DNA from: Minisyncoccota bacterium
GTDB lineage: Bacteria; Patescibacteriota; Minisyncoccia; UBA6257
Direction of reading: 5' to 3'
DNA length: 52,097 bases
Assembly (NCBI GenBank): GCA_028711005.1
Contig: JAQTTC010000002.1
Coordinates: 1 to 52,097 of the forward strand
Shown: positions 879-26,486 of the stretch, piece after piece
Numbering within the stretch: position 1 is the first letter of the stretch
Layout: each line of letters begins with the position of its first letter
Notes under the pieces: model-generated
What the model was told of the DNA's origin: nothing
What the model saw: only the letters and a program-made list of their open reading frames with translations
The model's database searches: none
Made by a program: the position numbers and the translations under genes

Positions 879-1003
879 TGAAAAATTGGGCAAGAAAATT
901 TAATCCTCATAAAACAGCATATCGAACACCAGCTTTATTTAAAATTAGAAAGATAAATAAAATTAAAAAGACTAAAGCTAGAAAAACAAAAAAGGGCAAT
1001 TAA
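878..1003 (+). CDS. putative 41-aa polybasic peptide (MKNWARKFNPHKTAYRTPALFKIRKINKIKKTKARKTKKGN)
   Basis: The ATG overlaps the upstream TAA as TAATG (876-880). The ORF ends at TAA 1001-1003 inside the terminator hairpin. It is below the size cutoff of the supplied track. No homolog recognised; it may be chance in AT-rich DNA. Confidence 0.3.
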   Translation: MKNWARKFNPHKTAYRTPALFKIRKINKIKKTKARKTKKGN

Positions 1004-1018
1004 ACAATTGCCCTTTTT
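991..1018. terminator. bidirectional intrinsic terminator between convergent genes
   Basis: Perfect 11-bp stem aaagggcaatt/aattgcccttt (991-1001 pairs with 1006-1016) with a 4-nt loop. An A-run lies upstream and a T-run downstream, so it can act on both strands. Confidence 0.6.
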
Positions 1019-1317
1019 AAATAATACTCTTTTACTACTTTCTTTTTTTTACCTTTATTTTTTGTCGTTATGAATTTTATATATTTTTTTGTTTTTTTAC
1101 TATTCTGTACACTCTGCATCATATCATGATATGCAATACCAATGACTTTTCTAAATATTTCTGCTTCTTGTTTTCTATTATCATTATGATTTGTTTGATC
1201 TTCTAATGTTTCTTTGATTTTTTGAAGCTTTTCTAGGGTTTCTGGAAATAGGGAAATTCTATAAAAAAATGCTTTACGTTCTGTAGGTTGCGTAAAAATT
1301 TTAGTTAAAATATTCAT
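1000..1317 (-). CDS. small basic hypothetical protein, possible ribbon-helix-helix DNA-binding fold
   Basis: 105-aa ORF with GGAGG (1326-1330, minus) 8 nt before the ATG. The N-terminal ERKAFFYRISLFPETLEKLQKIKE reads as a strand followed by a helix, as in CopG/RHH proteins. The C-terminal tail is Lys-rich. Confidence 0.6.
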   Translation of the reverse strand: MNILTKIFTQPTERKAFFYRISLFPETLEKLQKIKETLEDQTNHNDNRKQEAEIFRKVIGIAYHDMMQSVQNSKKTKKYIKFITTKNKGKKKKVVKEYYLKRAIV

Positions 1318-1342
1318 TATTCATACCTCCTAAAATAAAATT

Positions 1343-1370
1343 TTCAAGATACTTTATATATTGTTATAAT
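1343..1370 (+). promoter_or_regulatory. candidate sigma-70 promoter for the amrS-amrB-amrA operon
   Basis: TTCAAG (1343-1348), a 16-nt spacer, then TGT-TATAAT (extended -10; TATAAT at 1365-1370). This leaves a roughly 60-nt leader containing AAGGA before the ATG at 1437. Confidence 0.4.
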
Positions 1371-1397
1371 AATACCATATTATTGTGGATCAATCAA
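1369..1397 (-). promoter_or_regulatory. candidate sigma-70 promoter for the 1000..1317 gene, overlapping the amrS promoter
   Basis: On the minus strand: TTGATT (1392-1397), a 17-nt spacer, then TGG-TATTAT (TATTAT at 1369-1374). Its -10 overlaps the -10 of the plus-strand promoter by 2 nt. Confidence 0.4.
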
Positions 1398-1436
1398 GGT
1401 ACCATATTTTGAGAGTTTTGGTATAATAAGGATAAT

Positions 1437-2468
1437 ATGAAAAAAGCAACACTCTATGAAAAACTAGGAAATAATAAAGTGCGTTGCTTAGCTTGTGCCC
1501 ATCAATGCTTAATTAATGATGGACAAGTTGGTCTTTGCGGTGTTCGTCAGAACAAAGGAGGAGAACTTTATTTATTAGTTTATGGTAAACCAATTAGTGT
1601 CAATGTAGAACCGATTGAAAAAAAGCCTCTTTTTCATTTTTTGCCTGGTCAGAAAGCTTTTTCTCTAGGAACTATTGGCTGTAATTTTGGCTGTGATTTT
1701 TGTCAAAATTGGGAAATTTCTCAATTACCAAAAACCATAGATAAGATAAAAGAGACTGGCTACGAAATGCAACATGAAAGCTGGCCACCTGAAGCGATAG
1801 TAGAACATTGCCTGGATTCTAATATTCCAATGATTGCCTATACATATAATGAACCTACTATTTGGACCGAGTATGCTTATGATATAATGAAACTAGCTAA
1901 AGAAAAGGGGATTAAGAATGTTTGGGTCTCTAATGGTTTTATGAGTAATAAAACACTTGAATTAATTAGTCCGTATTTAGATGCAATTAATATAGATTTA
2001 AAGAGTTTTTCTGATAATTTTTATCAGAAAATTTGTAAGGCTCACATAGAACCAGTAAAAGAAAATATTAAGAAGATTTGGAAAAAGGGGATCTGGATTG
2101 AAGTTACTTCTTTAATAATTCCAGGAAAAAATGATTCTAATCAAGAATTAAAACAAATAGCTGGATTTTTAAAAAGCATTTCCCCTGATTTACCCTGGCA
2201 TATTTCCGCATTTTATCCAGCTTATAAAATGAAAGATATTCCTCCAACTCCTAAAGAATCCTTAATTAGAGCTTATCAAACCGGTAAAGAAACTGGATTA
2301 AGATACGTTTACACCGGAAATATTCCTGATGCTAATTATGAAAGCACTTATTGCCCCAAATGTAATACCAAATTAATTACCAGACAGGGAACTAAGGTAA
2401 TAAATAATTTACTTATTAATAACAACCAATGTTTTCAATGCAAAGAAAAAATACCAATAATTTATTAA
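1437..2468 (+). CDS. amrS: AmmeMemoRadiSam system radical SAM enzyme
   Basis: CNFGCDFCQNW (CxxxCxxC radical-SAM cluster motif), overall pyruvate-formate-lyase-activase-like layout, and Cys pairs near both termini. Memo and AMMECR1 genes follow immediately. Confidence 0.9.
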   Translation: MKKATLYEKLGNNKVRCLACAHQCLINDGQVGLCGVRQNKGGELYLLVYGKPISVNVEPIEKKPLFHFLPGQKAFSLGTIGCNFGCDFCQNWEISQLPKTIDKIKETGYEMQHESWPPEAIVEHCLDSNIPMIAYTYNEPTIWTEYAYDIMKLAKEKGIKNVWVSNGFMSNKTLELISPYLDAINIDLKSFSDNFYQKICKAHIEPVKENIKKIWKKGIWIEVTSLIIPGKNDSNQELKQIAGFLKSISPDLPWHISAFYPAYKMKDIPPTPKESLIRAYQTGKETGLRYVYTGNIPDANYESTYCPKCNTKLITRQGTKVINNLLINNNQCFQCKEKIPIIY

Positions 2469-3280
2469 TTCGTCCTTCATCTGTTGCAGGGACTTTTTAT
2501 CCTGAGGATCCAGAAGAACTTAAAAAAACAATCCAGGGGCTTTTGAGTAAAGTTACTACCAAAGAAAAACAAAAGAATTTAAGATCTTTAATCCTTCCTC
2601 ATGCTGGATATATATATTCTGGACAAATTGCTGCTTATGGATACAAAACAATTAAGCCCGATACTTTTAATAGAGTTATTCTTTTAGGACCTAGCCATCA
2701 TTTTTCTTTTAAAGGATTAGCAGCTACTCCTGAAAGTTTCTGGAAGACTCCTTTAGGAAAAGTTAAGATAATAGCAAAAGATAAATTTGCAAAAATAAAA
2801 GAGGAAAAGAATATTGTTGAATCGATTGAATTCCATCGACCAGAACATTGCCTAGAAGTTCAATTACCATTTTTACAGATGACTTTGAGTAATTTTGAAT
2901 TATTCCCATTATTAATAGGGGAGATTGATACTAGTATTGCAGCTGATATCTTGATGCCAATTATTAATAAAAAAACTTTATTAATAGTTAGCTCTGATTT
3001 AAGCCATTATATGCCGTACTCTCAAGCAAAAATAGCAGATAAGGCTACTATTGATTCTATTTTAAAAAATGATATTGAACAATTTAATGAATATGGCAAT
3101 GCTTGTGGCAAGAAACCTATAGAAATTTTATTAGAAATTGCTAAAAGAAAAAAATGGAATTCTAAACTTTTATGTGCTATGAATTCCGGGGAAACAGTTG
3201 GCGGTATTTGCTTACCTCAAAAAAACGACCAAGATGAAAACCAAGTAGTAGGATATGCTAGTATTATGTTTTATGAATAG
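2429..3280 (+). CDS. amrB: AmmeMemoRadiSam system protein B (MEMO1 family)
   Basis: AGTFYPEDPEEL, LPHAGYIYSGQIAAYGY, LGPSHH and SSDLSHY blocks are typical of Memo-like proteins. It overlaps the amrS 3' end; the true start may be the ATG at 2438. Confidence 0.9.
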   Translation: MFSMQRKNTNNLLIRPSSVAGTFYPEDPEELKKTIQGLLSKVTTKEKQKNLRSLILPHAGYIYSGQIAAYGYKTIKPDTFNRVILLGPSHHFSFKGLAATPESFWKTPLGKVKIIAKDKFAKIKEEKNIVESIEFHRPEHCLEVQLPFLQMTLSNFELFPLLIGEIDTSIAADILMPIINKKTLLIVSSDLSHYMPYSQAKIADKATIDSILKNDIEQFNEYGNACGKKPIEILLEIAKRKKWNSKLLCAMNSGETVGGICLPQKNDQDENQVVGYASIMFYE

Positions 3281-3833
3281 AGAAGATCAAAAATATCTTT
3301 TACAATTAGCTAGAAGAACTCTTGAAAAACATTTTCAAGATAAAGAAATTCTTCAAATAGAAAGTGATGATTTACCAACTTCTTTAACTGAAATAAAGGG
3401 AGTTTTTGTTTCTCTATTTAAAAACGAAGAACTTAGAGGGTGCATAGGAAACTTAAAAGGTGATCAACCAATATTTCAAGGAGTTATTGAAAATAGTTTA
3501 GCCAGTGCTTTGTTTGATCCTCGATTTGAACCTCTAACAGAAGATGAATTAAATAATGTAAAGATAGAAATCTCTGTTATTGAACCAATGAAAGAAACAC
3601 CTGAATTTCAAAATCCTAAAGATCTCTTAGATTATTTAAATAAAAATCATCCGGGTATTTTAATAAAAAAAGAAGCTTTTCAAGCTACTTTTTTACCTCA
3701 AGTATGGAAAGAATTAACAACTGCTGAAGATTTCCTTTCTCATCTATGTATAAAAGCAGGTTTAGCTAAAGATGAATGGAAGAAAATGGATCTAGATATT
3801 TATGAATACAAAGTGAATAATTTTAAAGAGTAA
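3273..3833 (+). CDS. amrA: AmmeMemoRadiSam system protein A (AMMECR1 domain)
   Basis: LRGCIGNL and DPRF motifs of AMMECR1. I prefer the ATG at 3273 (8-nt overlap with the amrB stop) over the track start at 3255. Confidence 0.88.
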   Translation: MNREDQKYLLQLARRTLEKHFQDKEILQIESDDLPTSLTEIKGVFVSLFKNEELRGCIGNLKGDQPIFQGVIENSLASALFDPRFEPLTEDELNNVKIEISVIEPMKETPEFQNPKDLLDYLNKNHPGILIKKEAFQATFLPQVWKELTTAEDFLSHLCIKAGLAKDEWKKMDLDIYEYKVNNFKE

Positions 3834-4857
3834 CTAAAGCTTTATCTTCCAATATATAAGGATAAATAAGGTTTCTTAAAAAATCAGGGCTTACTCCAGG
3901 ACATTCAGTAGGCTTTTCTTTTATATCTATTTCCTGATGACCTTTAATAAAGTTTTCTGTCCATTCTCGGCCAGCTAAATTAGGTTTACGTAAATAAAAT
4001 TCTTTTTGAGATAAATCAAAATTGTATTCAGTGACTAAGTATTTAATTAAATTAATCAAAGATTTTTGCATTGAAGTATTTAATTCATCATGCCCAGGCC
4101 TAAAATCACCCATTAAAGAGATTGAAATTGTAGCATTATTATGACCATATGAATGGACGCCAACTGCATATTTACCACCTAAATTACCTTCATAAATGCG
4201 TCCAGCTCCATCAATTAAATAATGATAGCCAATATCTTGCCATTTTCTTTGTACAGCCTGCATTAAATAAATTCTACGCAACTCTTCCTTTGACTCTTCA
4301 AAATTAAAGGTAAAATTACCAGCAGTATGATGAATGATAATTTCTTCTATTGGTAAATAATAATAACGAAGACCATTTTCTTTCTCTAATGATTGACGGA
4401 AAAAACTATCAATTAATTGAAAATTTTGTCTGTAATTTAAAGCTAACTCCTTAGAATTCCAATATTCCTGTTTAGAAAAATTATCTTCAGGGTTATATCC
4501 TCCTGGATAACAAAAATTATTTTCACAAAAATCTTTTATAAAATCTAAACTAGCATATTGATTGTCAGCTCCCCATTGTTCTCGACTAATTATTTCCAGA
4601 TTTTCATTTCCTAAAAGTCTTTGCCCAAAACTTTTATAAAAATCAGTTAGATTAATATGCTGAGGAATATCAAGATTTAGATCATCTAAATCAGCATCTA
4701 TGCAAGAAGAATCTTTAATGGTTTCTGATTCAAATTGAATTAAAGAAGAGGTTAATTGATTGCTTGTTTTAAATTCTAAACTAATAGCAATTCCGGTAGC
4801 AGTAATAAAGAAAACAGCTAAAACTATTAAAATGAAAGATTTTTTTGATGAAAACAT
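3823..4857 (-). CDS. N-acetylmuramoyl-L-alanine amidase (Amidase_2/PGRP domain), membrane-anchored
   Basis: N-terminal TM helix (FILIVLAVFFITATGIAI). IIIHHTAG, IGYHYLIDGAGRIYEG and GHNNATISISLMGDF match the zinc amidase_2 fold. Start is coupled to the fmt stop as TAATG. Confidence 0.85.
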   Translation of the reverse strand: MFSSKKSFILIVLAVFFITATGIAISLEFKTSNQLTSSLIQFESETIKDSSCIDADLDDLNLDIPQHINLTDFYKSFGQRLLGNENLEIISREQWGADNQYASLDFIKDFCENNFCYPGGYNPEDNFSKQEYWNSKELALNYRQNFQLIDSFFRQSLEKENGLRYYYLPIEEIIIHHTAGNFTFNFEESKEELRRIYLMQAVQRKWQDIGYHYLIDGAGRIYEGNLGGKYAVGVHSYGHNNATISISLMGDFRPGHDELNTSMQKSLINLIKYLVTEYNFDLSQKEFYLRKPNLAGREWTENFIKGHQEIDIKEKPTECPGVSPDFLRNLIYPYILEDKALVTL

Positions 4858-5813
4858 TATAAACTATTATTTAAAACTTGATTAAGAATCCAACCATTAC
4901 CTCTAAGAAAATTCTCACTAGACATTGTTTGCTTCCCAGCTGGTTTTATTTGTTCAATCACATAAAATCCTTCACCGCATTTAACAGCTAGTTTATCATT
5001 GAAATTAAAAACCGTGCCTGGAATTTTTTCTGAACACTCTCTATTCCCTGGATAACCTTTTATTATCTTTAATATTAATTCATTACCTTGAGAATTAATA
5101 GTCTTAGTAAAAACACCTGGTTGAGGATTTAAAGCTCGTACTTTTCTATCAATTTTAATACATGTTTCATTCCATTGAATCTTTTCGTCTTTAGGTAATA
5201 TTTTCTGACAATAAGTAGCTAGAGAATGATCTTGAGGAATAGGAAATATTTCTTCTCTCAAATATTGTGGAACTGTTTTGATTATTAATTCAGCTCCTAG
5301 CACAGCTAATTCTGTTGATAACTCTTCATAATTTAATTTTTCATTCTGAATTTCGTATTTTGCACTTTGTATTATTGGTCCATGATCAACTTGTTCATCC
5401 ATCAAAATCAATGAAACACCAGTCTCTTTATCCCCATTTAAAATAGCTGATTGAATTGGTGTAGCTCCTCTCCACTGAGGAAGAAGCGAAGGATGAAGAT
5501 TAATAAATCCTTTAGTTGGAATATCTAACAATCTAGAGGGGATAATTTTACCATAAGCAGTTAGAATTACTAATTCTGGCTTTAATTTCTCAAATTCATT
5601 AATAAAAGCTTGATCATCTAATTTTTCAGGGGTAAGTATAGGTATATTATTCTCCTGAGCTAAGAGATGCACAGGAGTAGGGGCAAGAACGTGTTTTCTT
5701 CCTTTTTGCTTAGGAGGATTAGTAACCACTAAAAAAGGCTTCATTTGGGCCTTTAAAAGCTTTTTAAGGGTTATTTCTGCAAATTCTGAAGAACCAAAGA
5801 ATATAAAATGCAT
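4857..5813 (-). CDS. fmt: methionyl-tRNA formyltransferase
   Basis: FFGSSEFA N-terminus and HPSLLPQWRGATPIQSAIL. I chose the ATG at 5813 (MHFIFFGS), 1 nt after the def stop, instead of the track start at 5885, which runs into def. Confidence 0.9.
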   Translation of the reverse strand: MHFIFFGSSEFAEITLKKLLKAQMKPFLVVTNPPKQKGRKHVLAPTPVHLLAQENNIPILTPEKLDDQAFINEFEKLKPELVILTAYGKIIPSRLLDIPTKGFINLHPSLLPQWRGATPIQSAILNGDKETGVSLILMDEQVDHGPIIQSAKYEIQNEKLNYEELSTELAVLGAELIIKTVPQYLREEIFPIPQDHSLATYCQKILPKDEKIQWNETCIKIDRKVRALNPQPGVFTKTINSQGNELILKIIKGYPGNRECSEKIPGTVFNFNDKLAVKCGEGFYVIEQIKPAGKQTMSSENFLRGNGWILNQVLNNSL

Positions 5814-5814
5814 A

Positions 5815-6285
5815 TTATAAAGCTGTTGTTTGTCTTTTATCTTCTCTAATATTAGACGCTTTATCAATAAAAAGAATACCATCAAGATGATCTATTTCAT
5901 GCTGGACCACTCTTGCCAATAAGTCAAAGGCTTTAATTTTAACCTTTTTACCGTCCAAATTAGTTGCCTTAACTGTTACTTTCTCTGGTCTTTCTACTTC
6001 TCCATAAATACCAGGCAGACTTAAGCATCCTTCTTCAAAGGTTGAAGTTTCTGATGATAATTTTACTATTTCAGGATTAATAAGTGAGTACATTTTATCA
6101 TTAACTTCGCAAACAATAACTCTTAAAGGAACTCCTATTTGAATAGCTGCTAGTCCAATTCCATCATTCTCTTTCATTGTTTTCTGCATTTGGCTTATAA
6201 GAGCATGAAGGTCAGCATCCATCTTTTTAACAGGAAGGCTTTTTTGACGTAAAGTTTGATTGTCTTTTCCAATAACTAATTCCAT
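5815..6285 (-). CDS. def: peptide deformylase
   Basis: GLAAIQIG, EGCLSLPG and QHEIDHLDG, the three canonical PDF motifs. Confidence 0.95.
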   Translation of the reverse strand: MELVIGKDNQTLRQKSLPVKKMDADLHALISQMQKTMKENDGIGLAAIQIGVPLRVIVCEVNDKMYSLINPEIVKLSSETSTFEEGCLSLPGIYGEVERPEKVTVKATNLDGKKVKIKAFDLLARVVQHEIDHLDGILFIDKASNIREDKRQTTAL

Positions 6286-6293
6286 ATTTTTTA

Positions 6294-8223: not shown

Positions 8224-8229
8224 GTAGTA

Positions 8230-8787: not shown

Positions 8788-8823
8788 ATACCTATTTTAT
8801 ATCATTTTACATATATTTTCCAA

Positions 8824-8853
8824 TTGACAACAAGGGCTTAAAAACTATATAAT
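8824..8853 (+). promoter_or_regulatory. candidate sigma-70 promoter of murC (leaderless geometry)
   Basis: TTGACA (8824-8829), an 18-nt spacer, TATAAT (8848-8853). Only 7 nt separate the -10 from the murC ATG at 8861, and there is no SD. Confidence 0.5.
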
Positions 8854-8860
8854 GATTTAA

Positions 8861-10255
8861 ATGACTACTAAAAAAGAGAAGATTCATTTAATTGGTATTG
8901 GCGGATCAGGAATGACATCTCTCGCCAACCTTCTTTTAGAAAAAGGATATTCTGTATCTGGCTCTGATAAAAATGATTTTGCTGTTAGAAAGTCATTAGA
9001 GAAAAAAGGAATTAAGATATATCTTAATCATCAAGCAAATAATTTAAAAAACCAAAAAGCTGTCATTTATTCTTCAGCAATTCCAAAAGATAATATTGAA
9101 CTTTTACAAGCAAAAAAAGAAAATATCCCTGTATTTAATCGTTTTGACTATTTAATAAAACTTTTAGCTGAAAAAAAGATAATTAGTATTGCCGGAACCC
9201 ATGGAAAGAGTACCACCACAGCAATGATTGCTCATCTTCTTGAAAAATCAGGTTTAGAACCAACGGTTTATTTAGGAGCTAAGAATAAAACATATCCTTT
9301 TGGAAGTTCTTGGGGAAAAGGGGAATATGCTGTTATAGAAACCGATGAGCACGACAAATCTTTTCTTAAAACTCCTTCTTTCTTATCTTTAATCAATAAC
9401 GTTGATAATGACCATTTATCAATTAAAGGTCCATATCAAGGGAAAATTTCTCTTCTAAAACAAGCTTTTCAAAAGTTTTCTGAAAAAAGCTACTTTGGAT
9501 TTATTGTTAATAATGATGACAATTTTTTAAGAAATTTAGGTAAAAAGAGTAAGAAGAATATCTTAAGTTTCGGTATTAATAAAAAAGCTGATCTTGTTGC
9601 AAGAAATATTTATTATCAAGGAAAAAATACTTTTGCTGATATATTTTTTCAAAACAAATTTGAAGATAAATTAAATCTTTCTATTCCAGGAAAAGAAAAT
9701 ATTTATAATGCCCTAGGTACAATCTGTGTTTCTCAAGTTATTGGTATTCTTTTTAAAGATTGTTTGAAACACTTAAAAAGCTTTTCTGGAATAAAAAGAA
9801 GATTTTCTGTCCTTTATAATAAAAATATAGCTGTAATTGATGATTATGCCCACCATCCTACTGAAATAAAAAGTGTTCTAGGAATGACTCACCAAGTCTT
9901 TCCTAAAAGAAGAATTATTTTAATTTTAGAACCACATCGTTATTCTCGAATTTCTTTTCTTTACAAAGAATATGCTCCAGCAGTAAAGAATTGTGATATC
10001 TTATTCTTGTTACCCATAGACCCTTCTAATGAAAAACCTATAAAAGGGGTGGAAAGTAAAAAAATATTTCAGGAAATATTAAAGAGCAAATCATTAAATA
10101 AAAGTAAAGTACATCTTATTGAAAACCAATCTGAATTATTTCAAAAACTTATTAAGCTTTTGAAAAAAGGAGATATTGTTCTTTTTGCTGGTCCAGGTAA
10201 AATATCAAATTTACCTTCTAAATTTATTAATTTTGTTAAAAGAAAAAAGATTTAA
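8861..10255 (+). CDS. murC: UDP-N-acetylmuramate--L-alanine ligase
   Basis: IHLIGIGGSGMTSLANLLLEKGYSVSGSD N-terminal Rossmann segment, GTHGKSTTTAMIAHLL P-loop, DDYAHHPTEI. Confidence 0.95.
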   Translation: MTTKKEKIHLIGIGGSGMTSLANLLLEKGYSVSGSDKNDFAVRKSLEKKGIKIYLNHQANNLKNQKAVIYSSAIPKDNIELLQAKKENIPVFNRFDYLIKLLAEKKIISIAGTHGKSTTTAMIAHLLEKSGLEPTVYLGAKNKTYPFGSSWGKGEYAVIETDEHDKSFLKTPSFLSLINNVDNDHLSIKGPYQGKISLLKQAFQKFSEKSYFGFIVNNDDNFLRNLGKKSKKNILSFGINKKADLVARNIYYQGKNTFADIFFQNKFEDKLNLSIPGKENIYNALGTICVSQVIGILFKDCLKHLKSFSGIKRRFSVLYNKNIAVIDDYAHHPTEIKSVLGMTHQVFPKRRIILILEPHRYSRISFLYKEYAPAVKNCDILFLLPIDPSNEKPIKGVESKKIFQEILKSKSLNKSKVHLIENQSELFQKLIKLLKKGDIVLFAGPGKISNLPSKFINFVKRKKI

Positions 10256-10266
10256 AATATATTTTT

Positions 10267-13862: not shown

Positions 13863-13917
13863 AAATAATTAACAAAAATATGTTTCATTTTATCATGTAT
13901 TTAATATATTTTCTATA

Positions 13918-13946
13918 TTGACAGTTATTATAATTATTGATATAAT
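13918..13946 (+). promoter_or_regulatory. near-perfect consensus sigma-70 promoter of the small-gene cassette
   Basis: TTGACA (13918-13923), exactly 17 nt, TGA-TATAAT (extended -10; TATAAT at 13941-13946). Confidence 0.7.
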
Positions 13947-14000
13947 AAGGATATTTGTAACTTGAAAACCGAATAAAAAATAAAGAAAGGGGGATTAAGA

Positions 14001-14228
14001 ATGAATTATCAGATGGAATTGTTTGAAAGAATACCTAAGATTAAAAGAAATAAAAAGGATAAGAAAAAAAAGAAATATTTTCTTGTAACAATAGTAGAAG
14101 ATGATGGTAATGAAATTAAAACTGGAAGATGGGCGTATTCAGAAAACCAAGCAAAAAGGAATATAGCCAAAGATTATAACAAGAAAAAAGGATTTGTAGA
14201 AGATCACTACATTCAGTTTAAATTATGA
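14001..14228 (+). CDS. hypothetical 75-aa Lys-rich protein (cassette gene 1)
   Basis: AAGGGGG SD 7 nt before the ATG and a TGA stop. The N-terminus MNYQMELF precedes a KRNKKDKKKKK tract. No family recognised. Confidence 0.7.
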   Translation: MNYQMELFERIPKIKRNKKDKKKKKYFLVTIVEDDGNEIKTGRWAYSENQAKRNIAKDYNKKKGFVEDHYIQFKL

Positions 14229-14243
14229 AAAAGGAGGTAGGTG

Positions 14244-14495
14244 ATGCAACAACTAAATTTCTTTAGTCCAAAAAAAGGAAGCTATGTAGATATAACTGAT
14301 GGAAAAGAAAAACCATATAGAATCTGGCTATCAAAAAATAAAAAATTCTCTTTGAGCGAGGCAATACAAGAAGCTTTAAAAGTTTACAACAAAGAAAAAG
14401 GGATTAATTTAACTAAAGATAATAATCTTGTAGGATTTGGAGAAATTGTATTAAATGGAAAAATATTTAGAAAGAAGAAAAAGGAGGTAAGATAG
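14244..14495 (+). CDS. hypothetical 83-aa Lys-rich protein (cassette gene 2)
   Basis: AAGGAGG (14231-14237) lies 6 nt before the ATG at 14244; the track uses the GTG at 14241. N-terminus MQQLNFF. No family recognised. Confidence 0.7.
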   Translation: MQQLNFFSPKKGSYVDITDGKEKPYRIWLSKNKKFSLSEAIQEALKVYNKEKGINLTKDNNLVGFGEIVLNGKIFRKKKKEVR

Positions 14496-14496
14496 A

Positions 14497-14748
14497 TTGA
14501 AAGGAACATTCAACGGATGGTTTGATTTAAAAACCGGAGAAATCAATATTCATGTTTGCTATTCTCGTAATAAAGAAAGTTTAAAACTGATACAAGAAAT
14601 GAAAAAAGATTTTAGAAAATGGTGGAAGAAATTTGCTAAAAAAAATCCGGTAGAAAATATACAAGAAAAAAACTGTTCTTTTAAAGATTGTGAAATTTAT
14701 ATAAAGAAAAGAAAAAAATCAATTGACAACAAAGGATATAATGAGTAA
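14497..14748 (+). CDS. hypothetical 83-aa basic protein (cassette gene 3), TTG start
   Basis: AAGGAGG (14481-14487) lies 9 nt before the TTG at 14497, which is 1 nt after the previous stop. Sequence is Trp/Lys-rich (FRKWWKKFAKK). No family recognised. Confidence 0.62.
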   Translation: MKGTFNGWFDLKTGEINIHVCYSRNKESLKLIQEMKKDFRKWWKKFAKKNPVENIQEKNCSFKDCEIYIKKRKKSIDNKGYNE

Positions 14749-14755
14749 ATATATA

Positions 14756-14780
14756 GCGGCAGGAGATTGACTTCTGCCGC
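14756..14780 (+). terminator. GC-rich hairpin after cassette gene 3 (leaky terminator or RNA-stability/processing element)
   Basis: GCGGCAG (14756-14762) pairs with CTGCCGC (14774-14780) around an 11-nt loop. It is followed by AAAATTTT rather than a clean T-run, and the next SD starts 11 nt later. Confidence 0.4.
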
Positions 14781-14806
14781 AAAATTTTAGAAGGAGGGGT
14801 TAAAAA

Positions 14807-14971
14807 ATGATTTCCATTGGTATATCTCTTGTAATTATGGGAATTTTATTCACATGTTTTCTAAATATAGTATGGGAAAATATTGCTAACACTGAAAAAA
14901 TGAGCCCAATAATAGCCTTGGCCATAACCTTTCTTTTCTTGCTCCCAGGATTAATAATTATAAAATTATAA
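14807..14971 (+). CDS. 54-aa two-TM membrane protein (MISIGISLVIMGILFTCFLNIVWENIANTEKMSPIIALAITFLFLLPGLIIIKL), not in supplied track
   Basis: AAGGAGG (14791-14797) lies 9 nt before the ATG. There are two hydrophobic helices separated by WENIANTEKM. An intrinsic terminator begins 13 nt after the TAA. The track instead lists the antisense ORF 14800..14982, which has no SD. Confidence 0.62.
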   Translation: MISIGISLVIMGILFTCFLNIVWENIANTEKMSPIIALAITFLFLLPGLIIIKL

Positions 14972-14983
14972 TTCATTATCATT

Positions 14984-15015
14984 ACCGGTGAGGATTATTC
15001 CTAACCGGTTTTTTA
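14984..15015 (+). terminator. intrinsic terminator closing the small-gene cassette
   Basis: accggtgagga (14984-14994) pairs with tcctaaccggt (14999-15009), 10 of 11 bp, around a 4-nt loop. It is followed by TTTTT (15010-15014). Confidence 0.65.
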
Positions 15016-15025
15016 TTATAAAATT

Positions 15026-15976
15026 TTATCTTCCTCCTCCATGAAATTTTTGATGAATTTCCCGGAGTTTTTTGTTAGTAACATGAGCATAAATTTGAGT
15101 AGCAGCAATGTTTTTATGACCCAAAAACTCTTGAAGAATTCTTATATCTACTCCTTGAGCTAGAAGATCAGTGCTAAAAGAATGCCTCATAACATGGGGA
15201 GTAGTATTTAAAGGTAATCCAGCCATCACAACATATTTCTTCATTGATTTTTCAATAGAACGATTAGTTAATCTTCTGGATGCATTTTTCTTACTCCGAT
15301 AGTTTATGAACAGAGCCTTGTCATCATCTTTTCGAGTTTCTAAATACTTACTTAACCAATGGAGAGCTCTTTCTGAAAAATATACCGTTCTCATTCTATT
15401 TCCTTTACCAATAATGCTTAATTCTAGTTCCTCTTTGCTATTTGGTTTAATTTTAATTTGATTACGATCAAGAGCCGTGAGCTCTGAGATACGCATTCCA
15501 GTAGAAAAAAGTATTTCTAAGATAGCTCTATCGCGCAATCCTTGTATTTTTGAAACATCAGGTGCTTTAAATAATTTTTCTAATTGTTCTAACACTAAAA
15601 AGCGAACCTGTTTATCACCTTTATCTCTAGCTAATTGTATTTTCTCTGTTGGTAAAGATAAAATATCCTTATCAGCGAAATAATTCAAAAGGGACCTTAA
15701 GGCGATTAAATAATAATTCTGTGTAGTTTTCTTCAAAGGTTGACCAGAATGATTAACACATTGGCGAGATAAAAAAACTCTATAATTCCAAACATGATCA
15801 GAGGACAATTCATGAGGTTTTAGATTACTTAATTTATTCTTTTCTAGCCAATCTAAAAACCTCTTTAAAAACCTAGCGTAGTTTTCTTGAGATTTTGAAG
15901 ATAATCCTTTTTGAATTTCTAACCAATCCAAAAAATCGTTTAAATAGGAGGGGATTGATCTATTGCTTTTTTCCAT
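15026..15976 (-). CDS. tyrosine site-specific recombinase (XerC/XerD-like)
   Basis: N-terminal SAM-like core-binding domain (YLNDFLDWLEIQKGLSSKSQENYARFLKRF). Catalytic region GMRISEL ... HVMRHSFSTDLLAQGVDIRILQEFLGHKNIAATQIYAHV supplies the R, HxxR, H and Y residues. Confidence 0.9.
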   Translation of the reverse strand: MEKSNRSIPSYLNDFLDWLEIQKGLSSKSQENYARFLKRFLDWLEKNKLSNLKPHELSSDHVWNYRVFLSRQCVNHSGQPLKKTTQNYYLIALRSLLNYFADKDILSLPTEKIQLARDKGDKQVRFLVLEQLEKLFKAPDVSKIQGLRDRAILEILFSTGMRISELTALDRNQIKIKPNSKEELELSIIGKGNRMRTVYFSERALHWLSKYLETRKDDDKALFINYRSKKNASRRLTNRSIEKSMKKYVVMAGLPLNTTPHVMRHSFSTDLLAQGVDIRILQEFLGHKNIAATQIYAHVTNKKLREIHQKFHGGGR

Positions 15977-17789: not shown

Positions 17790-17835
17790 GATATTTATAT
17801 ATTATACTATACCACGAAACAAAGACTTAGGAAAG

Positions 17836-19062: not shown

Positions 19063-19081
19063 TATTATTTATTGATTATTA

Positions 19082-20176: not shown

Positions 20177-20264
20177 ATTGTATTAATACATTGTATAATA
20201 TTTTTCTTTGAATCTCAAACAAAATTAAGTTATAATACTAATAATATTAATCAATAAATATATT

Positions 20265-21584: not shown

Positions 21585-21585
21585 T

Positions 21586-22842
21586 TTATTCATATCTTAA
21601 GGCTTCGATTGGACTTAACTCTGCTGCTTTACGAGCAGGATAAATACCAAAAACAATACCAATACCTGCAGCTACTCCAAAAGCTAAAACTATAGATTTT
21701 AAAGAAACTACAAATGACCATTGAGTTCCTAAGGCCATACTTAAAACAATAGCTGCAAGATAGGCAAAGACAATACCTAACAAAATTCCTATTATTCCAC
21801 CAAGACCAGTAAGAACAATGGCCTCAATTAGAAATTGATAAAGAATATCTTTTTTACGAGCGCCAACTGCCTTTCTTAAGCCAATTTCTCTAGTTCTTTC
21901 AACTACTGAAACTAACATAATATTCATAATTCCAATTCCACCAACCAATAAAGCAATTGCTGCTACGGAAGATAGAAGCATTGTTAAAATACCAGTTACA
22001 ATATTCATCATATCAGCACTTTCTTTAGCACTAACTACTTTAAAATCGTCTTTTGATAAATCACCTTCTGGATTATATATATTATGTCTTTCTCTTAAAA
22101 TCAGACGGATGCTTTCCATTGCTTCGTCAATTTTATCTTGACTTACTATTTTCACAGCTGAAGATTGAATATGGTTAATACCTAATAGGAATTTCTGAAC
22201 AGTAGTTATTGGAATATATACATAATCATCAACATTTAAAAACATTTGACTTCCCTGCTCCTCCATCACCCCAATAACTTTAAAATTTACATCCTTTATC
22301 CTTATTGTTTTACCAATAGGATTTTCATTTTGAAAAAAATCTTCATTTATTTTATAGCCCAAGACAGCGACTTTTGCCATACTCTGAACGTCGAAATCAT
22401 TAAAATTAGATCCTAATATAGTTCTACCTCCGGTTATTTCAGCATAGGCTGGACTGGTACCAAAAACAGTAACTTTTTTATCATTGTTCTTATAAACAAC
22501 TCTGGCTACATTTAAAACCATTGGAGCAACTGATTCAACTAAAGGATCTTTTTCTATTGCATCCATGTCATCTAAAGTTAATGTTTTTATATCCATTCCT
22601 TCCATCATTGCTTGAGTCATATCAGCTCCTTCTAGATCAAAAGAGCCTGGTTCAACATAAACATTATTTGGACCCATAGACATAATTTGTTTTAAAATTA
22701 AGCCTTGAGCTCCATCACCTAAAGACATCATTAAGATAACTGATGAAATCCCTATTACAATACCTAAAATCGTTAAAAATGAACGAGTTTTATTTGTTTT
22801 TAAACCAACAAGTGCTGTTTGAAAAGAATTACTTAATTTCAT
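21586..22842 (-). CDS. ABC transporter permease, MacB/FtsX type
   Basis: N-terminal TM helix, then a large extracytoplasmic domain and three C-terminal TM helices. TREIGLRKAVGARKKDI loop. It follows a MacB-type ATPase. Confidence 0.9.
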   Translation of the reverse strand: MKLSNSFQTALVGLKTNKTRSFLTILGIVIGISSVILMMSLGDGAQGLILKQIMSMGPNNVYVEPGSFDLEGADMTQAMMEGMDIKTLTLDDMDAIEKDPLVESVAPMVLNVARVVYKNNDKKVTVFGTSPAYAEITGGRTILGSNFNDFDVQSMAKVAVLGYKINEDFFQNENPIGKTIRIKDVNFKVIGVMEEQGSQMFLNVDDYVYIPITTVQKFLLGINHIQSSAVKIVSQDKIDEAMESIRLILRERHNIYNPEGDLSKDDFKVVSAKESADMMNIVTGILTMLLSSVAAIALLVGGIGIMNIMLVSVVERTREIGLRKAVGARKKDILYQFLIEAIVLTGLGGIIGILLGIVFAYLAAIVLSMALGTQWSFVVSLKSIVLAFGVAAGIGIVFGIYPARKAAELSPIEALRYE

Positions 22843-22846
22843 AGTT

Positions 22847-23560
22847 TTATTTAATTAAACCATCTTTAGCATAATGCCTTAAACTAACTAATTCATCGCT
22901 GAGTATTTTTCCATCTTTTAAAGAAATTATTCTTTTTGCCATCTCTGCAGTGTATTTTTCATGAGTTACTAAAATTATTGTATGACCTTGATCATTCAGC
23001 TTTTGGAAAATATCCATTATTTGTTGCCCAGATTTACTATCCAAATTACCAGTAGGTTCATCAGCAAAAATTACTGAAGGATGGTTAACAATTGCTCGAG
23101 CTATTGCTGTCTTTTGTTGTTCTCCCCCTGAAAGTTGATTAGGAAAGTGAAAAGCTCGATGGAAAATACCAACAGATTTTAAAGCTTGCTCTACTAATTC
23201 ATTTTCTTTTTCTTTAGAAAAACCTGTATAAATTAAAGGAAGTTTTACATTATCAAAAACATTTGTTCTTGATAAAAGATTATATGACTGAAAAACAAAA
23301 CCCATCTTTTTATTTCTAACTCTTGCTAATTCATCATCATTAAAATCATCTATACTTTTATCTTCAAACTTACATTGTCCATAAGTCGGTCTATCTAAAA
23401 AACACATAATATGCATTAAAGTCGATTTACCAGATCCTGAAGGACCCATAATAGAAACAAACTCTCCTGAAGAAATTTTAAAAGAAACCCCTTGTAAAGC
23501 AGGGGTTTTTACACTATTGTTACCATAAATTTTTTTAAGATTTTCTATTTCAAATAACAT
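22847..23560 (-). CDS. ABC transporter ATP-binding protein (MacB/LolD-like)
   Basis: Walker [11 protein letters not shown]-loop FVFQSYNL, signature [14 protein letters not shown], Walker [14 protein letters not shown]-loop VTHE. Confidence 0.95.
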
Positions 23561-25141
23561 TTATTTTCTAATAAAAGTAATTATTTCTTCCCCCTCTTCT
23601 AATCCTGATAAAATTTCAATATATCCTTCGGGGTTTCTTAAACCTGTTTGAACTTCTCTTTCTTCATAACCTTCTTCAGTATTATTAGGAACCCTAACTA
23701 ACATTTTTCCATTTTTTTCTATTATCGCCCTTTGGGGAATAAATAAAACATCTTCTTTTGAATCAATAATTATAGTTAAATCAGCTGTCATACCTACTTT
23801 TGCCTCTAAGCCCTCCGGATCAATAGAGCTTTTAACTTGATAATAAACAACTCCATCGATTATAGTTTCTGCGAAATCAATTTCTATTACTTTTCCCTTA
23901 AACTCCTTCCTAGGAAAAGCATCTAAAACTATTAAAGTATCATTCCCAATTTTAATTTTTGAAATATCAACTTCTGGAATATATGCCTTTATCTCTAATT
24001 CTTCTTGCTCGGACATCACGCTAACCAATGGAATATTAGCTGAAACTACTTCACCCTGCCTAATATCCATCTTAACAACAACTCCATCTCTTGGAGCACG
24101 AATAATTGTCTTTTCAATCAAAGCATAATAATTTGACACATTTGCCCGAGCAGATTTAACTCTTGATTCTTGAATAGCTATTTGCTCTGTCGTTGATCCA
24201 GCTAATAATAAATCTAATTCATTTTTCACTCTTTGAACTAATAGGTTTTGAGAAATAATATTATTTTCAATTGTATCAATGTTACTAATTGCACTAATAA
24301 TTAAATTTTTTCCATGACTAGCATTAACTCTATGAATATCTAAATAAGGATTGCTATATGAACAATCAGCTAATAAAACATTATTTAATTTATTAAAAAA
24401 GTCACTAAAAACTATTAAATGATTTTTTGCTCTTTGAATCGCTGAAATTAATTCTTCATAAGAAACATCATAATTTATTAGCATTAGCTCATCTTTCCAT
24501 TGCATAAGCTCTCTTTCCGACATTAATCTAGCATACCCTGCTGCTGAAGCTATCTCATTTGTTACGCAATAATCAAAAGTAAATGTATAACCACTTGCTG
24601 CTTCTGCTCCATAAAAAATATCTTTTATATCTATCTTGATCGCTTCTTCAGATTTTGAATAAGCATCATTTAAAGAATTAATAACAGTTTGATAATAATT
24701 ATTTAAATCCTGCTGAGCTTTTGATAGTTCTAACTCTTTTATATTTATTGTTTCCTGTCTTGTTCCCTTTTTTAATTCATTTAATTGAGCAATCTCTGCA
24801 TCGAGGCTTGCTTGAGCCTGCTCTAATTGAGACCAAAGATCATTATTCTCAAGGCTAGCTAAAACTTGCCCTGCTTTTACCTCGTCTCCGTTCTCAACCA
24901 TAATTTTTGATACATTTCCTGTAGCTCTAAAAGATAAATCAACCCTTCCAGCTGATTGAACTCTTCCAGTCACCGAGACTTCTTCTCTTATCGCCCCTCT
25001 TTCAACAAATGCTAAACTATATCCTGTCTCGTTATTGCCTTTTATTATAAAGAATAAAACAACTACTAAAAAGATAAGAACTCCTATGGCAATAAGTTTA
25101 TAATTAAGAATTTTTTGTATAATTTTTTGAATAAAATTCAT
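23561..25141 (-). CDS. efflux periplasmic adaptor (HlyD/MacA family) with very long coiled-coil hairpin
   Basis: N-terminal TM anchor, lipoyl-like half-motifs (GDEVKAGQVLASLE ... IRAPRDGVV) and C-terminal beta-barrel/MP domains. At 526 aa it has an extended helical insert. Confidence 0.8.
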   Translation of the reverse strand: MNFIQKIIQKILNYKLIAIGVLIFLVVVLFFIIKGNNETGYSLAFVERGAIREEVSVTGRVQSAGRVDLSFRATGNVSKIMVENGDEVKAGQVLASLENNDLWSQLEQAQASLDAEIAQLNELKKGTRQETINIKELELSKAQQDLNNYYQTVINSLNDAYSKSEEAIKIDIKDIFYGAEAASGYTFTFDYCVTNEIASAAGYARLMSERELMQWKDELMLINYDVSYEELISAIQRAKNHLIVFSDFFNKLNNVLLADCSYSNPYLDIHRVNASHGKNLIISAISNIDTIENNIISQNLLVQRVKNELDLLLAGSTTEQIAIQESRVKSARANVSNYYALIEKTIIRAPRDGVVVKMDIRQGEVVSANIPLVSVMSEQEELEIKAYIPEVDISKIKIGNDTLIVLDAFPRKEFKGKVIEIDFAETIIDGVVYYQVKSSIDPEGLEAKVGMTADLTIIIDSKEDVLFIPQRAIIEKNGKMLVRVPNNTEEGYEEREVQTGLRNPEGYIEILSGLEEGEEIITFIRK

Positions 25142-25186
25142 GATATCAATGAACTAAAATATAACATAAAACAACAGAATCTGCAA

Positions 25187-25222
25187 TAAAAAAGCCATTA
25201 ATACAATACAATATTAATGGCT
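25187..25222 (-). terminator. intrinsic terminator closing the pyrE/small-protein operon
   Basis: Perfect 11-bp stem agccattaata (25193-25203) / tattaatggct (25212-25222) with an 8-nt loop. On the minus strand it is followed by TTTTT (plus-strand A-run 25188-25192). Confidence 0.7.
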
Positions 25223-25234
25223 TTATTGCTTCAA

Positions 25235-25315
25235 TTATTTGCCCTCTGTTAAATATATAAAAATTAAGAATAAGAGAGATGATCCTGCAAGAAATTGCCA
25301 AAAAGAAGTAATCAT
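25235..25315 (-). CDS. 26-aa hydrophobic micropeptide (MITSFWQFLAGSSLLFLIFIYLTEGK), not in supplied track
   Basis: AAGGAGG (25322-25328, minus) lies 6 nt before the ATG at 25315; this SD overlaps the last codons and stop of the upstream gene. One TM-length hydrophobic stretch. The terminator begins 13 nt after the TAA. Confidence 0.5.
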   Translation of the reverse strand: MITSFWQFLAGSSLLFLIFIYLTEGK

Positions 25316-25318
25316 TTC

Positions 25319-25579
25319 CTACCTCCTTAAAAGAAAAAATTCATCAAAATCACGGAAATTTCCTTTTTCATCAATTATTATCTTTATTCCCTCTGGTAGT
25401 CTAGTAATTACAAAAATTTTCCCTTTACTAATATTAATGCCTTCATACCCAATAAGAATTTCTTTTACTTTTGTTTTTAATTTTTTTTCTGAAAAAAACG
25501 AATACTGTTTCTCAATAAACTTTCTTATAAATCTTTCTGCTATAACTATCTCTTTTACACCTTCTTTCAAAGCATTCAT
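25319..25579 (-). CDS. hypothetical 86-aa protein, paralog of the gene upstream
   Basis: AAGGAGGG (25587-25594, minus) lies 7 nt before the ATG at 25579; the track uses the TTG at 25585. It shares F-I-x-K-x-Y-S and I-D-x-x-G-x-F blocks with 25610..25819. Confidence 0.65.
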   Translation of the reverse strand: MNALKEGVKEIVIAERFIRKFIEKQYSFFSEKKLKTKVKEILIGYEGINISKGKIFVITRLPEGIKIIIDEKGNFRDFDEFFLLRR

Positions 25580-25609
25580 TTTCAAACCCTCCTTTATTTT
25601 TATTAATCT

Positions 25610-25819
25610 TTAAGTATTTACAAAAAATCCTTCCTTATCAATGCCAAAAAATCCTTTTCTATTTTTCTTATAAATTACTAAAATATCAATCTTTTCACCT
25701 TTTAATTTGCCTGCAATTCTTTGTCTATAATCTTTAATAATTTCTTGTTTTTCTTCTTCTGTACTATTAGAATAATTCTTTTTTATAAAATTATCTAAAA
25801 TTTCTTTTTCAAAAATCAT
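25610..25819 (-). CDS. hypothetical 69-aa protein, paralog of the gene downstream
   Basis: AGGAGAG (25826-25832, minus) directly abuts the pyrE stop and lies 6 nt before the ATG at 25819. The track's GTG at 25852 would overlap pyrE. Contains NFIKKNYS and GIDKEGFF blocks. Confidence 0.65.
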   Translation of the reverse strand: MIFEKEILDNFIKKNYSNSTEEEKQEIIKDYRQRIAGKLKGEKIDILVIYKKNRKGFFGIDKEGFFVNT

Positions 25820-25832
25820 TTCTGTCTCTCCT

Positions 25833-26426
25833 TTATAAATTATTAATATCACGACTACCTGGTTTGATTACGGGAACTCCTTTCTTACATAATGGACAAT
25901 CTTCTGGTCTATACACATCCATCTTTATGGTTAGCAATTTCTCATACTTTACCCCAAAGTTAATTTCTCCTCCGCTTCTATCAATTAAAGCACCAACACC
26001 AATTACCTTCCCCTGTCTCTCTTTAACAATATCTATTACCTCCCGAACTGAGCTTCCTGTAGTTGTTACGTCTTCAACTACTAAAACCTTTTCTCCTTTT
26101 TTAATTTGAAAACTTCTTCTTAAGGTCATTTTTCCATTTTCTCTTTCAGTAAAAATTGCCCTAACCCAAGAACCTAGAGCTAAAGCCATTACATGAGTCA
26201 TTATGATACCGCCGATTGCTGGACCTATAACTACCTCGACTTGGTCTTTCTTGAATCTTTTACCTAATTCATTGCATAAATTTTGAATAAATCCAGGGTA
26301 CTGCATGACCTGAGCACACTGAATGTATGTATCACTGTGAACACCAGAAGTTAGTTTAAAATGTCCTCTCAAAATAGCTCCTGCCTCTTCAAATTTTTCC
26401 ATCACTTCTTTTTCTTGAACCATCAT
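25833..26426 (-). CDS. pyrE: orotate phosphoribosyltransferase (short PyrE type)
   Basis: GHFKLTSGVHSDTYIQ, PRPP loop VLVVEDVTTTGSSV, and C-terminal CPLCKKGVPVIKPGSR, as in short-form OPRTases. AAGGAGG (26435-26441, minus) lies 8 nt before the ATG. Confidence 0.8.
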   Translation of the reverse strand: MMVQEKEVMEKFEEAGAILRGHFKLTSGVHSDTYIQCAQVMQYPGFIQNLCNELGKRFKKDQVEVVIGPAIGGIIMTHVMALALGSWVRAIFTERENGKMTLRRSFQIKKGEKVLVVEDVTTTGSSVREVIDIVKERQGKVIGVGALIDRSGGEINFGVKYEKLLTIKMDVYRPEDCPLCKKGVPVIKPGSRDINNL

Positions 26427-26486
26427 TTTTCTTACCTCCTTAAACTATAAAAATTTTCAAGTTGCAACTGATTTTTAATTTAAAAA

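Follow-up and report, generated by a model that had tools for sequence, protein, structure and literature searches.

Why should a bacterium place textbook Shine-Dalgarno (SD) sequences before a small set of its genes and not before the rest, in a lineage whose 16S ribosomal RNA (rRNA) tails lack the complementary anti-SD? The question is raised by a 52,097-nucleotide stretch of DNA from a Minisyncoccota bacterium (contig JAQTTC010000002.1 of assembly GCA_028711005.1), hereafter called the window, in which nine open reading frames (ORFs) are preceded by strong SDs. The window is contig C6 of the genome that we designate G000; other G-numbers denote its relatives.

A sharp split between SD-led and SD-less genes

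Genes were called with a simple ORF and codon-score caller of our own, which takes the first ATG as the start and was used in place of a standard gene finder; it returned 62 genes of at least 40 amino acids (aa) in the window. The initial annotation had pointed to nine SD motifs, one before a lone ORF, four in a cluster between a nuclease and a recombinase gene and four in a unit headed by pyrE. All nine are present, each 6-9 nt ahead of the start codon of an ORF, as it had proposed. Its observation that the core genes lack such motifs also holds: GGAGG or AGGAG at positions -19 to -5 precedes none of the other called genes of the window, two of which (41722..42945 and glmS) carry a weak GAGG only. 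Pfam searches confirmed murC, rplI, gltX, ftsW, rpsI, rpoA, efp and glmS among the SD-less genes.

The genome comprises 454,053 bases in 36 contigs, has a G+C content of ~30% and is rated 98.57% complete. A total of 483 genes were called, and two contigs were excluded from the counts that follow. One of these, C24 (6.6 kb), has 61.6% G+C, compared with ~30% elsewhere, and is probably foreign to the bin; the other, C7 (2.8 kb, 45% G+C), starts by eye like a 23S rRNA gene and contains no 16S end. A genome-wide scan, which had been suggested as a check on the window, found GGAGG or AGGAG at -19 to -5 in 27 of 462 genes, compared with 8 of 462 in a control interval at -40 to -26 and 6 of 470 at +6 to +20. 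The first base of GGAGG falls at -15 to -10 in 19 of the 462 genes, with a peak at -13 (9 genes), and the 25 positions from -40 to -16 together yield four such starts. Miscalled start codons would hide few further SDs: an SD-preceded alternative start within 40 codons exists for 18 of 442 non-SD genes, mostly at sites that look internal and coding. Leaders are generally poor in G (5-12% upstream of starts) and rich in A (up to 56% at -3), and no SD is shared by the bulk of genes. The split between SD and non-SD genes is real and sharp.

It is extremely improbable that this split is an artefact of binning, gene calling or chance. Our gene calls are non-standard, some SD-led genes lie on short and possibly mis-binned contigs (C12, C27, C36), and C24 looks foreign. 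These points are outweighed by the nine SD-led ORFs that sit between core genes inside a single 52-kb window, by the same pattern in the 6-contig G006 assembly, by the far lower counts in the controls and by the recurrence of orthologous SDs in independent assemblies, and the explanation is already largely refuted.

We compared the classes under a slightly wider SD definition, which gave 31 SD-led genes and 434 genes without an SD-like motif. The SD-led genes are shorter (median 101 aa versus 236.5 aa) and indistinguishable in overall G+C (0.305 versus 0.304), and their G+C at third codon positions (GC3) is 0.208, compared with 0.177-0.181 in core genes and 0.195 in other accessory genes. More of them lie on contigs shorter than 12 kb (17/31 versus 115/434), fewer have a reciprocal-best orthologue in the same-genus genome G006 (13/31 versus 360/434), and the orthologues that exist are more divergent (median identity 37% versus 73%). 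The SD-led class comprises ~3-6% of genes, which are short, fast-evolving or accessory and are arranged in units of one to four genes.

Members of the class include pyrE-like, guanylate-kinase-like, tmk and thyX genes, two radical-SAM genes and many small ORFs that belong to no family, some of them with lipoprotein-like or hydrophobic N-termini. SD-led genes occur as insertions of one to three genes amid SD-less core genes, as exemplified by a tmk-HD-thyX cassette between rplK and gatB (C28 4111-6087; L079) that has no counterpart in G006. Within this cassette tmk and thyX are SD-led, and the HD-domain label comes from a reading of the sequence alone. Two further loci (C27 190-1688 and C36 1044-2589; L078, L080) resemble systems for ribosomally synthesised and post-translationally modified peptides (RiPPs), each pairing a radical-SAM gene with a 52-55-aa Cys-rich ORF; one of the radical-SAM proteins has a SPASM domain, and all four genes are strongly SD-led.

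SDs are retained at orthologous starts in relatives

A three-ORF operon beside rpsI, which corresponds to part of the pyrE unit of the window, provides the clearest comparison. Across five species (G000, G002, G003, G005 and G006) a GGAG-type SD stands before 15 of its 15 starts, while the bases flanking those SDs differ and the 86-aa proteins encoded are 40-53% identical. Homologues of the 86-aa protein occur in 10 of 27 genomes of the family, in two genera, and the SD is retained in all nine intact homologues, again across both genera. In G001, G004, G034 and G008, GGGGG, GGAGG or GGAGA precedes the start of the homologue, and the adjoining rpsI has no SD. The family is restricted to this lineage, with four proteins found by a word-based search and 11 clusters found by a profile search of 1.84 billion representatives.

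A similar picture emerges from pairwise comparison of G000 with G006. The two-by-two table of SD state among their orthologues reads 8 and 5 in the row of SD-led genes and 4 and 356 in the row of the others. GGAG is kept in 7 of 11 SD-led pairs, a few doubtful orthologues among the 11 having been left in; before non-SD genes, 10 of 81 purine 4-mers and 19 of 82 GC-rich ones are kept. SDs are retained even where the orthologous G006 proteins have fallen to 26-51% identity, and a neutral relic would not be expected to survive such divergence under A+T pressure. To judge from these sequence comparisons, the SD is probably kept under selection, and we propose that, since selection appears to keep it, it continues to act as a signal for ribosome binding in this organism and its relatives.

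Surveys of relatives suggest that the SD-led pattern is lineage-wide. GGAGG falls at -14 to -11 in 11 of 527 genes of G006, an assembly with a UUUCU tail and no general SD. In G021, a genome of the same order with 49% G+C and an unlike tail, GGAGG is the most enriched 5-mer at -18 to -9 (9 versus 0 in a sample of 347 genes, 345 kb). In G014 and G007 the parts that were sampled contain two to six SD-positioned GGAGG motifs each, often in clusters of two to three neighbours. The pattern AAGGAGG-N4-9-ATG occurs 7-53 times per genome in 31 relatives, compared with 3-21 times for a reversed-pattern control, and is in excess in all 31; this control is noisy, and the excess is only 1.2- to 1.4-fold in G007 (21 versus 16), G014 (14 versus 10) and G027.

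AGTAA, GTAAT and TAATT are also enriched at -18 to -9 in G021 (L144-L163; AGTAA 19 versus 1), with no sharp peak in a later scan. This AGTAA-type motif may be a near-start -10-like box or another initiation motif.

The anti-SD is missing from the 16S tails of relatives

The initial annotation had presupposed a CCUCC anti-SD at the 16S 3' end. In every relative with an assembled 16S this premise fails. The 16S of G000 itself was not found in its assembly by searches with RF00177, with motifs or by blastn with the same-genus rRNA region. In the same-genus genomes G005 and G006 the 16S ends in GGUGAAACUUUUCUUUUAUAG, with a tail that reads GAAACUUUUCUUUUAUAG; in this derived tail, of the form CUUUUCUUUU, CCUCC has become UUUCU through three C-to-U changes, and Infernal aligns the ACCUCC of its model to UUUUCU. 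Tails from the family read CUUUUCUUUAUAG (G007), CUUUUAUUUUAAAA (G014) and GAGACAUUUAUAUU (G009), and five further tails from the order likewise have no CCUCC at the canonical place, which makes none in the ten tails read from genus, family and order.

Broader searches gave the same result. The pattern TAACAAGG-N20-45-CCTCC produced 46 matches in 44 of 201 order genomes, none of them 16S-like, although this pattern misses a 16S that is unassembled or that has an insertion at that place, as in G012, G016 and G026. In these three genomes (L165, L166, L169) the insertion lies directly after GTCATAA and before helix 45, and the tails are further downstream. GGATCACCTCCTT, with up to two mismatches allowed, matched in G000 and in G005 to G008, and at none of the 16S 3' ends that were mapped (G005, G006, G007); the four G006 sites checked on the opposite strand look coding and are followed by no start codon. 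CCTCC is absent from the full-length 16S of G007, G014, G020, G023 and G025, and occurs once each, differently placed, in the 16S of G021 and G027 and in a G006 fragment.

A tail without CCUCC had been named at the outset as grounds for abandoning the SD split. Such tails do occur in the relatives, and the split itself is not removed by them; rather, loss of the anti-SD makes the conserved SDs harder to explain.

Anti-SD loss in this kind of candidate phyla radiation (CPR) lineage is itself already published (PMC9297842). As far as the portion of that study available to us goes, 48% of Parcubacteria have a detectable anti-SD motif, and those in which it is missing coincide in part with a group that lacks ribosomal protein uL1 (Tsurumaki et al. 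2022, RNA 28:1041, PMC9297842). In G000 a search for uL1 (PF00687) found no match, and the control search matched 14 of 14 genomes; bS21 and S1-domain proteins are present.

Assemblies of this lineage often lack a complete 16S: G008, in two contigs, has none, and the gene is interrupted where a contig ends in both G005 and G006. In the latter two genomes (L009, L010), where the contig breaks mid-16S, the gene is followed by two hairpins and seemingly unrelated sequence in place of 23S. A blastn comparison of that stretch with G000, where C7 carries the 23S start, gave no match, and the rRNA genes seem unlinked.

Horizontal acquisition and the origin of the SD-led class

The pyrE gene of the window illustrates how part of the class may have arisen. 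A true orthologue is found in one of six same-genus genomes (G002). The nearest genes outside the lineage are in metagenome-assembled genomes (MAGs) of Atribacterota (72-79% aa identity), and other close matches come from MAGs labelled Methanosarcinales and Nanoarchaeia (66-75%) and from one further CPR-labelled MAG (loci L087-L096, L114, L140). The sequences indicate that pyrE is horizontally related to the Atribacterota genes, most probably through cross-phylum transfer. This link may hint at partner organisms of the CPR bacterium, or it may reflect wrongly binned contigs in the MAGs concerned. The leaders tell a further story: in Atribacterota a GGAGG lies within the coding end of the gene upstream of pyrE, whereas in three CPR genomes pyrE stands behind a new intergenic leader with AAGGAGG. 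Given this different leader location, the SD of pyrE is apparently not the donor's.

These observations bear on the possibility that SDs are inherited baggage, imported with genes from SD-using donors or mobile elements, with little or no function and not yet decayed; the SD-led minority would then mirror a continual influx of foreign genes. The accessory and island-like character of the class, seen in its few orthologues (13/31 versus 360/434) and its bias to small contigs (17/31 versus 115/434), is what such an origin would leave, as are the clusters of two to three adjacent SD-led genes in G014, G007 and G006, the raised GC3 shared with other accessory genes and the 72-79% identity of pyrE to Atribacterota genes. 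The extended consensus GGAGGT(G) moreover fits a canonical tail that is absent from these cells. We nevertheless regard this explanation as unlikely. SDs are kept at 26-51% protein identity, in 15 of 15 starts over five species and in a second genus, while comparable G-containing 4-mers before other genes are retained in only 9-23% of cases. The pyrE leader with its SD is new and common to three CPR genomes rather than donor-derived. Finally, the 86-aa family is confined to the lineage, so that its SD is apparently being kept inside hosts without an anti-SD.

Of the two readings originally offered for the SD-led units, each captures something. Acquisition from an SD-dependent source finds support for part of the class in pyrE, in the scarcity of orthologues, in the small contigs and in the raised GC3, and runs against the conservation of the SDs. 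The reading as a reserved expression class is favoured by that same conservation in orthologues, at all 15 operon starts and in a second genus, and is itself only partly right.

A phage origin of the small ORFs was also considered and rejected. They had no PHROG match save one at E = 0.0097, two of them had no relatives in viral contigs, and structural leads from Atlas were sub-threshold only (a viral cluster at TM 0.56 and DUF2997 at TM 0.45-0.51), DUF2997 being a weak lead for ORF 14497..14748.

A degenerate tail as candidate reader of the SD

What, in such cells, could read an SD? The explanation that we favour, tentatively and at slightly less than even probability, is that the degenerate U-rich tail does so through weak wobble pairing with long purine tracts. 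CCUCC would have been lost at the level of the order, and most genes would have given up SD initiation, leaving leaders that are A-rich and G-poor and in a sizeable share leaderless-looking. A second class of ~6% of genes would have its own sigma-70-type promoter, ~50-nt leader and terminator for each unit, with an extended SD of the type AGAAAGGAGGT 5-10 nt before every start, and some of its genes, such as pyrE, would have been acquired horizontally. The tail would have stayed pyrimidine-rich, so that a long purine tract could form 8-9 contiguous A-U, G-U and G-C pairs with it. Pairing this weak would allow only very long SDs to bind usefully, short ones having decayed, and we propose that this accounts for the all-or-none split.

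Several observations are consistent with this explanation. AAAGGAGG pairs in register with the derived tail through one G-C, four A-U and three G-U pairs. Predicted pairing with that tail averages -7.25 kcal/mol for SD-led leaders, compared with -2.45 kcal/mol for other leaders. Median lengths of the purine run around GGAG are 10 nt (G000) and 13 nt (G006), where composition alone would extend it by ~1.3 nt on each side.

Other observations weigh against a wobble-pairing tail. The G000 tail is extrapolated from two same-genus genomes and from further relatives at family and order level. A tract rich in A pairs more stably with a U-rich tail (AAAGAAAAG, -7.1 kcal/mol; AAAGGAGGU, -4.2 kcal/mol), and the GGAG core is invariant in orthologues though mutation pressure favours A; wobble pairing leaves this retention of Gs unexplained. 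The base after an SD-positioned GGAGG is T in 23 of 38 cases and A in 6 of 38, compared with 59 and 105 of 228 at neighbouring positions, and a T at this place fits canonical ACCUCC, not the derived UUUUCU. Tails also vary among relatives (UUUUAUUUU in G014, AUUUAUAUU in G009, CAACUACACAG in G021), and SD-led genes are still found in G014 and G021. Of the A-rich motifs that would match the derived tail, AGAAA, AAAGA and AAGAA show no positional peak upstream of starts in G000 and G006, and the other 926 genes of these two genomes pair more weakly with the derived tail upstream of their starts than in the flanks. We rejected A-rich SDs matched to the derived tail as a candidate, no dip in pairing energy being present in these 926 non-SD genes.

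The conserved Gs and the flanking T that fits ACCUCC are what one would expect if something other than the derived tail read GGAGG: a protein or RNA on the 30S platform, a second 16S with a canonical tail (specialised ribosomes) or the ribosomes of a foreign host. The persistence of SD-led genes in relatives with unlike tails points in the same direction, the assemblies often lack all or part of 16S, and Alteromonas, in the parts of the survey available to us, has two conserved 16S classes with different anti-SDs (PMC6107228). Such a reader has proved elusive. None of the ten tails is canonical, the pattern search across 201 order genomes revealed no canonical tail either, GGATCACCTCCTT has no match at mapped 16S 3' ends and is coding-like at the four G006 sites inspected, CCTCC is absent from five full-length 16S (G007, G014, G020, G023, G025), and no candidate factor was identified. 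We judge another reader improbable. CsrA, which we considered as a reader of GGA, was not found in the genome and was rejected.

A stronger, joint form of this idea seems quite unlikely to us. In it, canonical SDs would be under purifying selection order-wide on leadered, lineage-specific operons, with flanking bases that complement the lost tail, and the cells, if the degenerate tail is not the reader, would have to possess an SD reader independent of the anti-SD, be it a protein of the platform, a further RNA or a specialised ribosome. As a more remote possibility, the messages might be made for the ribosomes of another cell, for example the host of an episymbiont.

A purine motif could also resemble an SD while serving another role, such as an unstructured leader, mRNA stability or regulator binding. 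Long purine tracts (runs of 10-13 nt) cannot self-fold, which would suit such a role. Nonetheless, an exact GGAG core set at a constant distance from the start (peak at -13) is typical of an SD. Tracts made up of A alone would be just as free of structure, and mutation favours them, yet the Gs are kept; moreover, a separate motif precedes every gene inside the units. We consider this alternative very doubtful.

How the SD-less genes start

SD-less genes differ from the SD-led class in their promoters as well. TANAAT starts at -15 to -11 in 56 of 432 non-SD genes (13%) and in 0 of 30 SD-led genes, with control windows at 19-28 of 462. The murC gene exemplifies this arrangement: a TTGACA-17-TATAAT promoter ends 7 nt before its ATG at 8861 (window 8810-8863). 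Such abutting -10 boxes suggest widespread leaderless mRNAs in this genome. Promoters of SD units lie ~50 nt upstream, and from this difference in promoter distance we infer that the split is also one of leader architecture.

We looked to prfB for an internal check on SD function through its frameshift. The gene for a release factor 2 (RF2)-like protein (C20 5246-5995; L073/L077) encodes a short protein whose start falls inside the PCRF domain, and no programmed frameshift site is present in it.

SD-led units of the window

Near the left end of the window, on the reverse strand, GGAGG at 1326..1330 stands 8 nt before the ATG of a 105-aa ORF (1000..1317) that matches no Pfam family above the cut-off and has no assigned function. 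Its G006 orthologue (44% identity) retains TAGGAGGG upstream.

The four-ORF unit lies on the forward strand, flanked by genes for a PD-(D/E)XK nuclease and a tyrosine recombinase. It is served by a promoter-like TTGACA-17-TATAAT sequence with TG (13918..13946; 12/12 match), which would give a leader of ~50 nt. The first SD, AAGGGGG at 13987..13993, precedes a Lys-rich 75-aa ORF (14001..14228) whose G006 homologue occupies the same site and is 34% identical. The second, AAGGAGG at 14231..14237, precedes an 83-aa ORF (14244..14495) without a Pfam family or assigned function; this SD is included in an exact 13-mer, GAAAAAGGAGGTA, a second copy of which lies at 14477-14489 and overlaps the third SD, AAGGAGG at 14481..14487. 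The latter belongs to another 83-aa ORF with a TTG start (14497..14748), at whose counterpart site G006 has an SD-led 101-aa ORF (48074..48379) with an N-terminus that looks alike by eye, unaligned. The fourth SD, GAAGGAGGGG at 14790..14799 with an AAGGAGG core at 14791-14797, precedes a hydrophobic, membrane-like 54-aa ORF (14807..14971). A terminator-like hairpin (ACCGGT...ACCGGT followed by a T run; 14984..15015) closes the unit; it was recognised by eye, its 14-nt loop being beyond the limit of the automated scan.

We rejected an integron-like array as an account of this four-ORF 'cassette'. The recombinase gene (15026..15976) converges on the ORFs rather than diverging from them, no attC-like repeats lie between the ORFs, the SD 13-mer aside, and one promoter and one terminator make an ordinary operon. 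The spacer between nuclease and recombinase (window 13863-15025) differs within the genus: it spans 1123 bp with four ORFs here and ~712 bp in G006, where it holds the SD-led 101-aa ORF and an 82-aa ORF with a weak GAGG only, and its content in G002 is partly different.

Contigs from RNA libraries (4 runs, 3 studies) match the window over their whole length with 0 mismatches at 14015-14281, 14326-14537, 14492-14734 and 14717-14902. These hint weakly that the four-ORF unit is transcribed, given that the four runs were picked via the four-ORF stretch itself, which biases cover, that DNA carry-over is possible, that stretches lacking cover are uninformative and that contigs cannot rank expression. 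Other whole contigs fall on ribosomal-protein genes and on ~30337-30700, where a 73-aa ORF (30480..30701) is found.

The pyrE unit, on the reverse strand, has a promoter-like TTGACT-17-TATTAT sequence with TG (26487..26515; 10/12 match). AAGGAGG at 26435..26441, which is retained in G002 and in the CPR-labelled MAG L091, precedes the accessory pyrE-like phosphoribosyltransferase gene (25833..26426; 197 aa). AGGAGAG at 25826..25832 precedes a 69-aa ORF (25610..25819) conserved in the genus, and its GGAGA is kept in all five species compared. AAGGAGGG at 25587..25594 precedes the ORF of the lineage-restricted 86-aa family (25319..25579), inside the end of which lies the fourth SD, AAGGAGG at 25322..25328, for a 26-aa hydrophobic peptide ORF (25235..25315) with counterparts of 21-26 aa in G002, G003, G005 and G006. 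A terminator-like hairpin at 25191..25224 closes the unit. Elsewhere in the window a tRNA-Lys (UUU) at 46762-46835 is the sole RNA gene.

Significance

In the textbook and survey view, genomes without an anti-SD are also without SDs, whereas here textbook SDs mark a defined class of ~3-6% of genes. A full-text literature search, outside which supplementary tables that may list tails or motifs would fall, turned up no published description of a small but conserved SD class in genomes that lack an anti-SD. The lineage offers a natural system for asking whether SD-like leaders can work without Watson-Crick pairing to CCUCC, how horizontally acquired genes are expressed in 'SD-blind' hosts and how initiation is divided between leaderless and leadered messages when genomes are ultra-small. 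The SD may also serve as a marker of a flexible, host-interaction-type gene pool in these CPR genomes, including small secreted or membrane peptides, RiPP-like clusters and nucleotide-salvage enzymes, and pyrE suggests that genes have been exchanged with Atribacterota. On a practical level, gene finders trained on a single ribosome-binding-site model for each genome will misplace the starts of one of the two classes.

Comparison with known systems

Bacteria and archaea rich in leaderless mRNAs are a natural point of comparison. The genome resembles them in the -10 box that, as read from the sequence, directly precedes the ATG in 13% of non-SD genes, and differs from them in the coexistence of a conserved SD class with the lack of an anti-SD, which is the unusual part. 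Organisms without a CCUCCU anti-SD were reportedly surveyed by Lim et al. in 2012.

The survey of Amin et al. (2018), which uses a genome-wide consensus method, indicates in the parts available to us that organisms without a CCUCCU anti-SD are also without a recognisable SD (PMC6107228). Like the organisms of that survey, the lineage described here has lost or altered its anti-SD and no longer has SDs before most of its genes. Unlike them, it has an SD-led class that, at 3-6% of genes, would be invisible to a consensus method.

A closer parallel is provided by the Parcubacteria subgroup that lacks both the anti-SD and uL1 (PMC9297842). The features shared with it are a small CPR genome, relatives' 16S without CCUCCU and the failure to find uL1; this is a likeness by features rather than by tree, and a record from the same genus is labelled 'uncultured Candidatus Saccharibacteria bacterium', a label that is unconfirmed. 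The Parcubacteria account differs in that SD helices are thought not to form there, and the text consulted mentions no conserved SD minority (PMC9297842).

Bacteroidia offer a third comparison. Their 'SD-blind' ribosomes, according to the parts of these reports available to us, retain the anti-SD and sequester it by ribosomal proteins, the SD being reserved for rpsU and prfB (PMC9976891, PMC10798248, PMC7797042, PMC6847099). In both cases most genes have no SD and A-rich leaders, and a few keep a strong SD, which is functional in Bacteroidia. In contrast to Bacteroidia, the anti-SD sequence itself is gone here, to judge from the relatives' tails, rpsU has no SD (its upstream sequence consists only of A and T), RF2 is a short form lacking a frameshift site, and the SD-led class is instead made up of accessory small-gene units.

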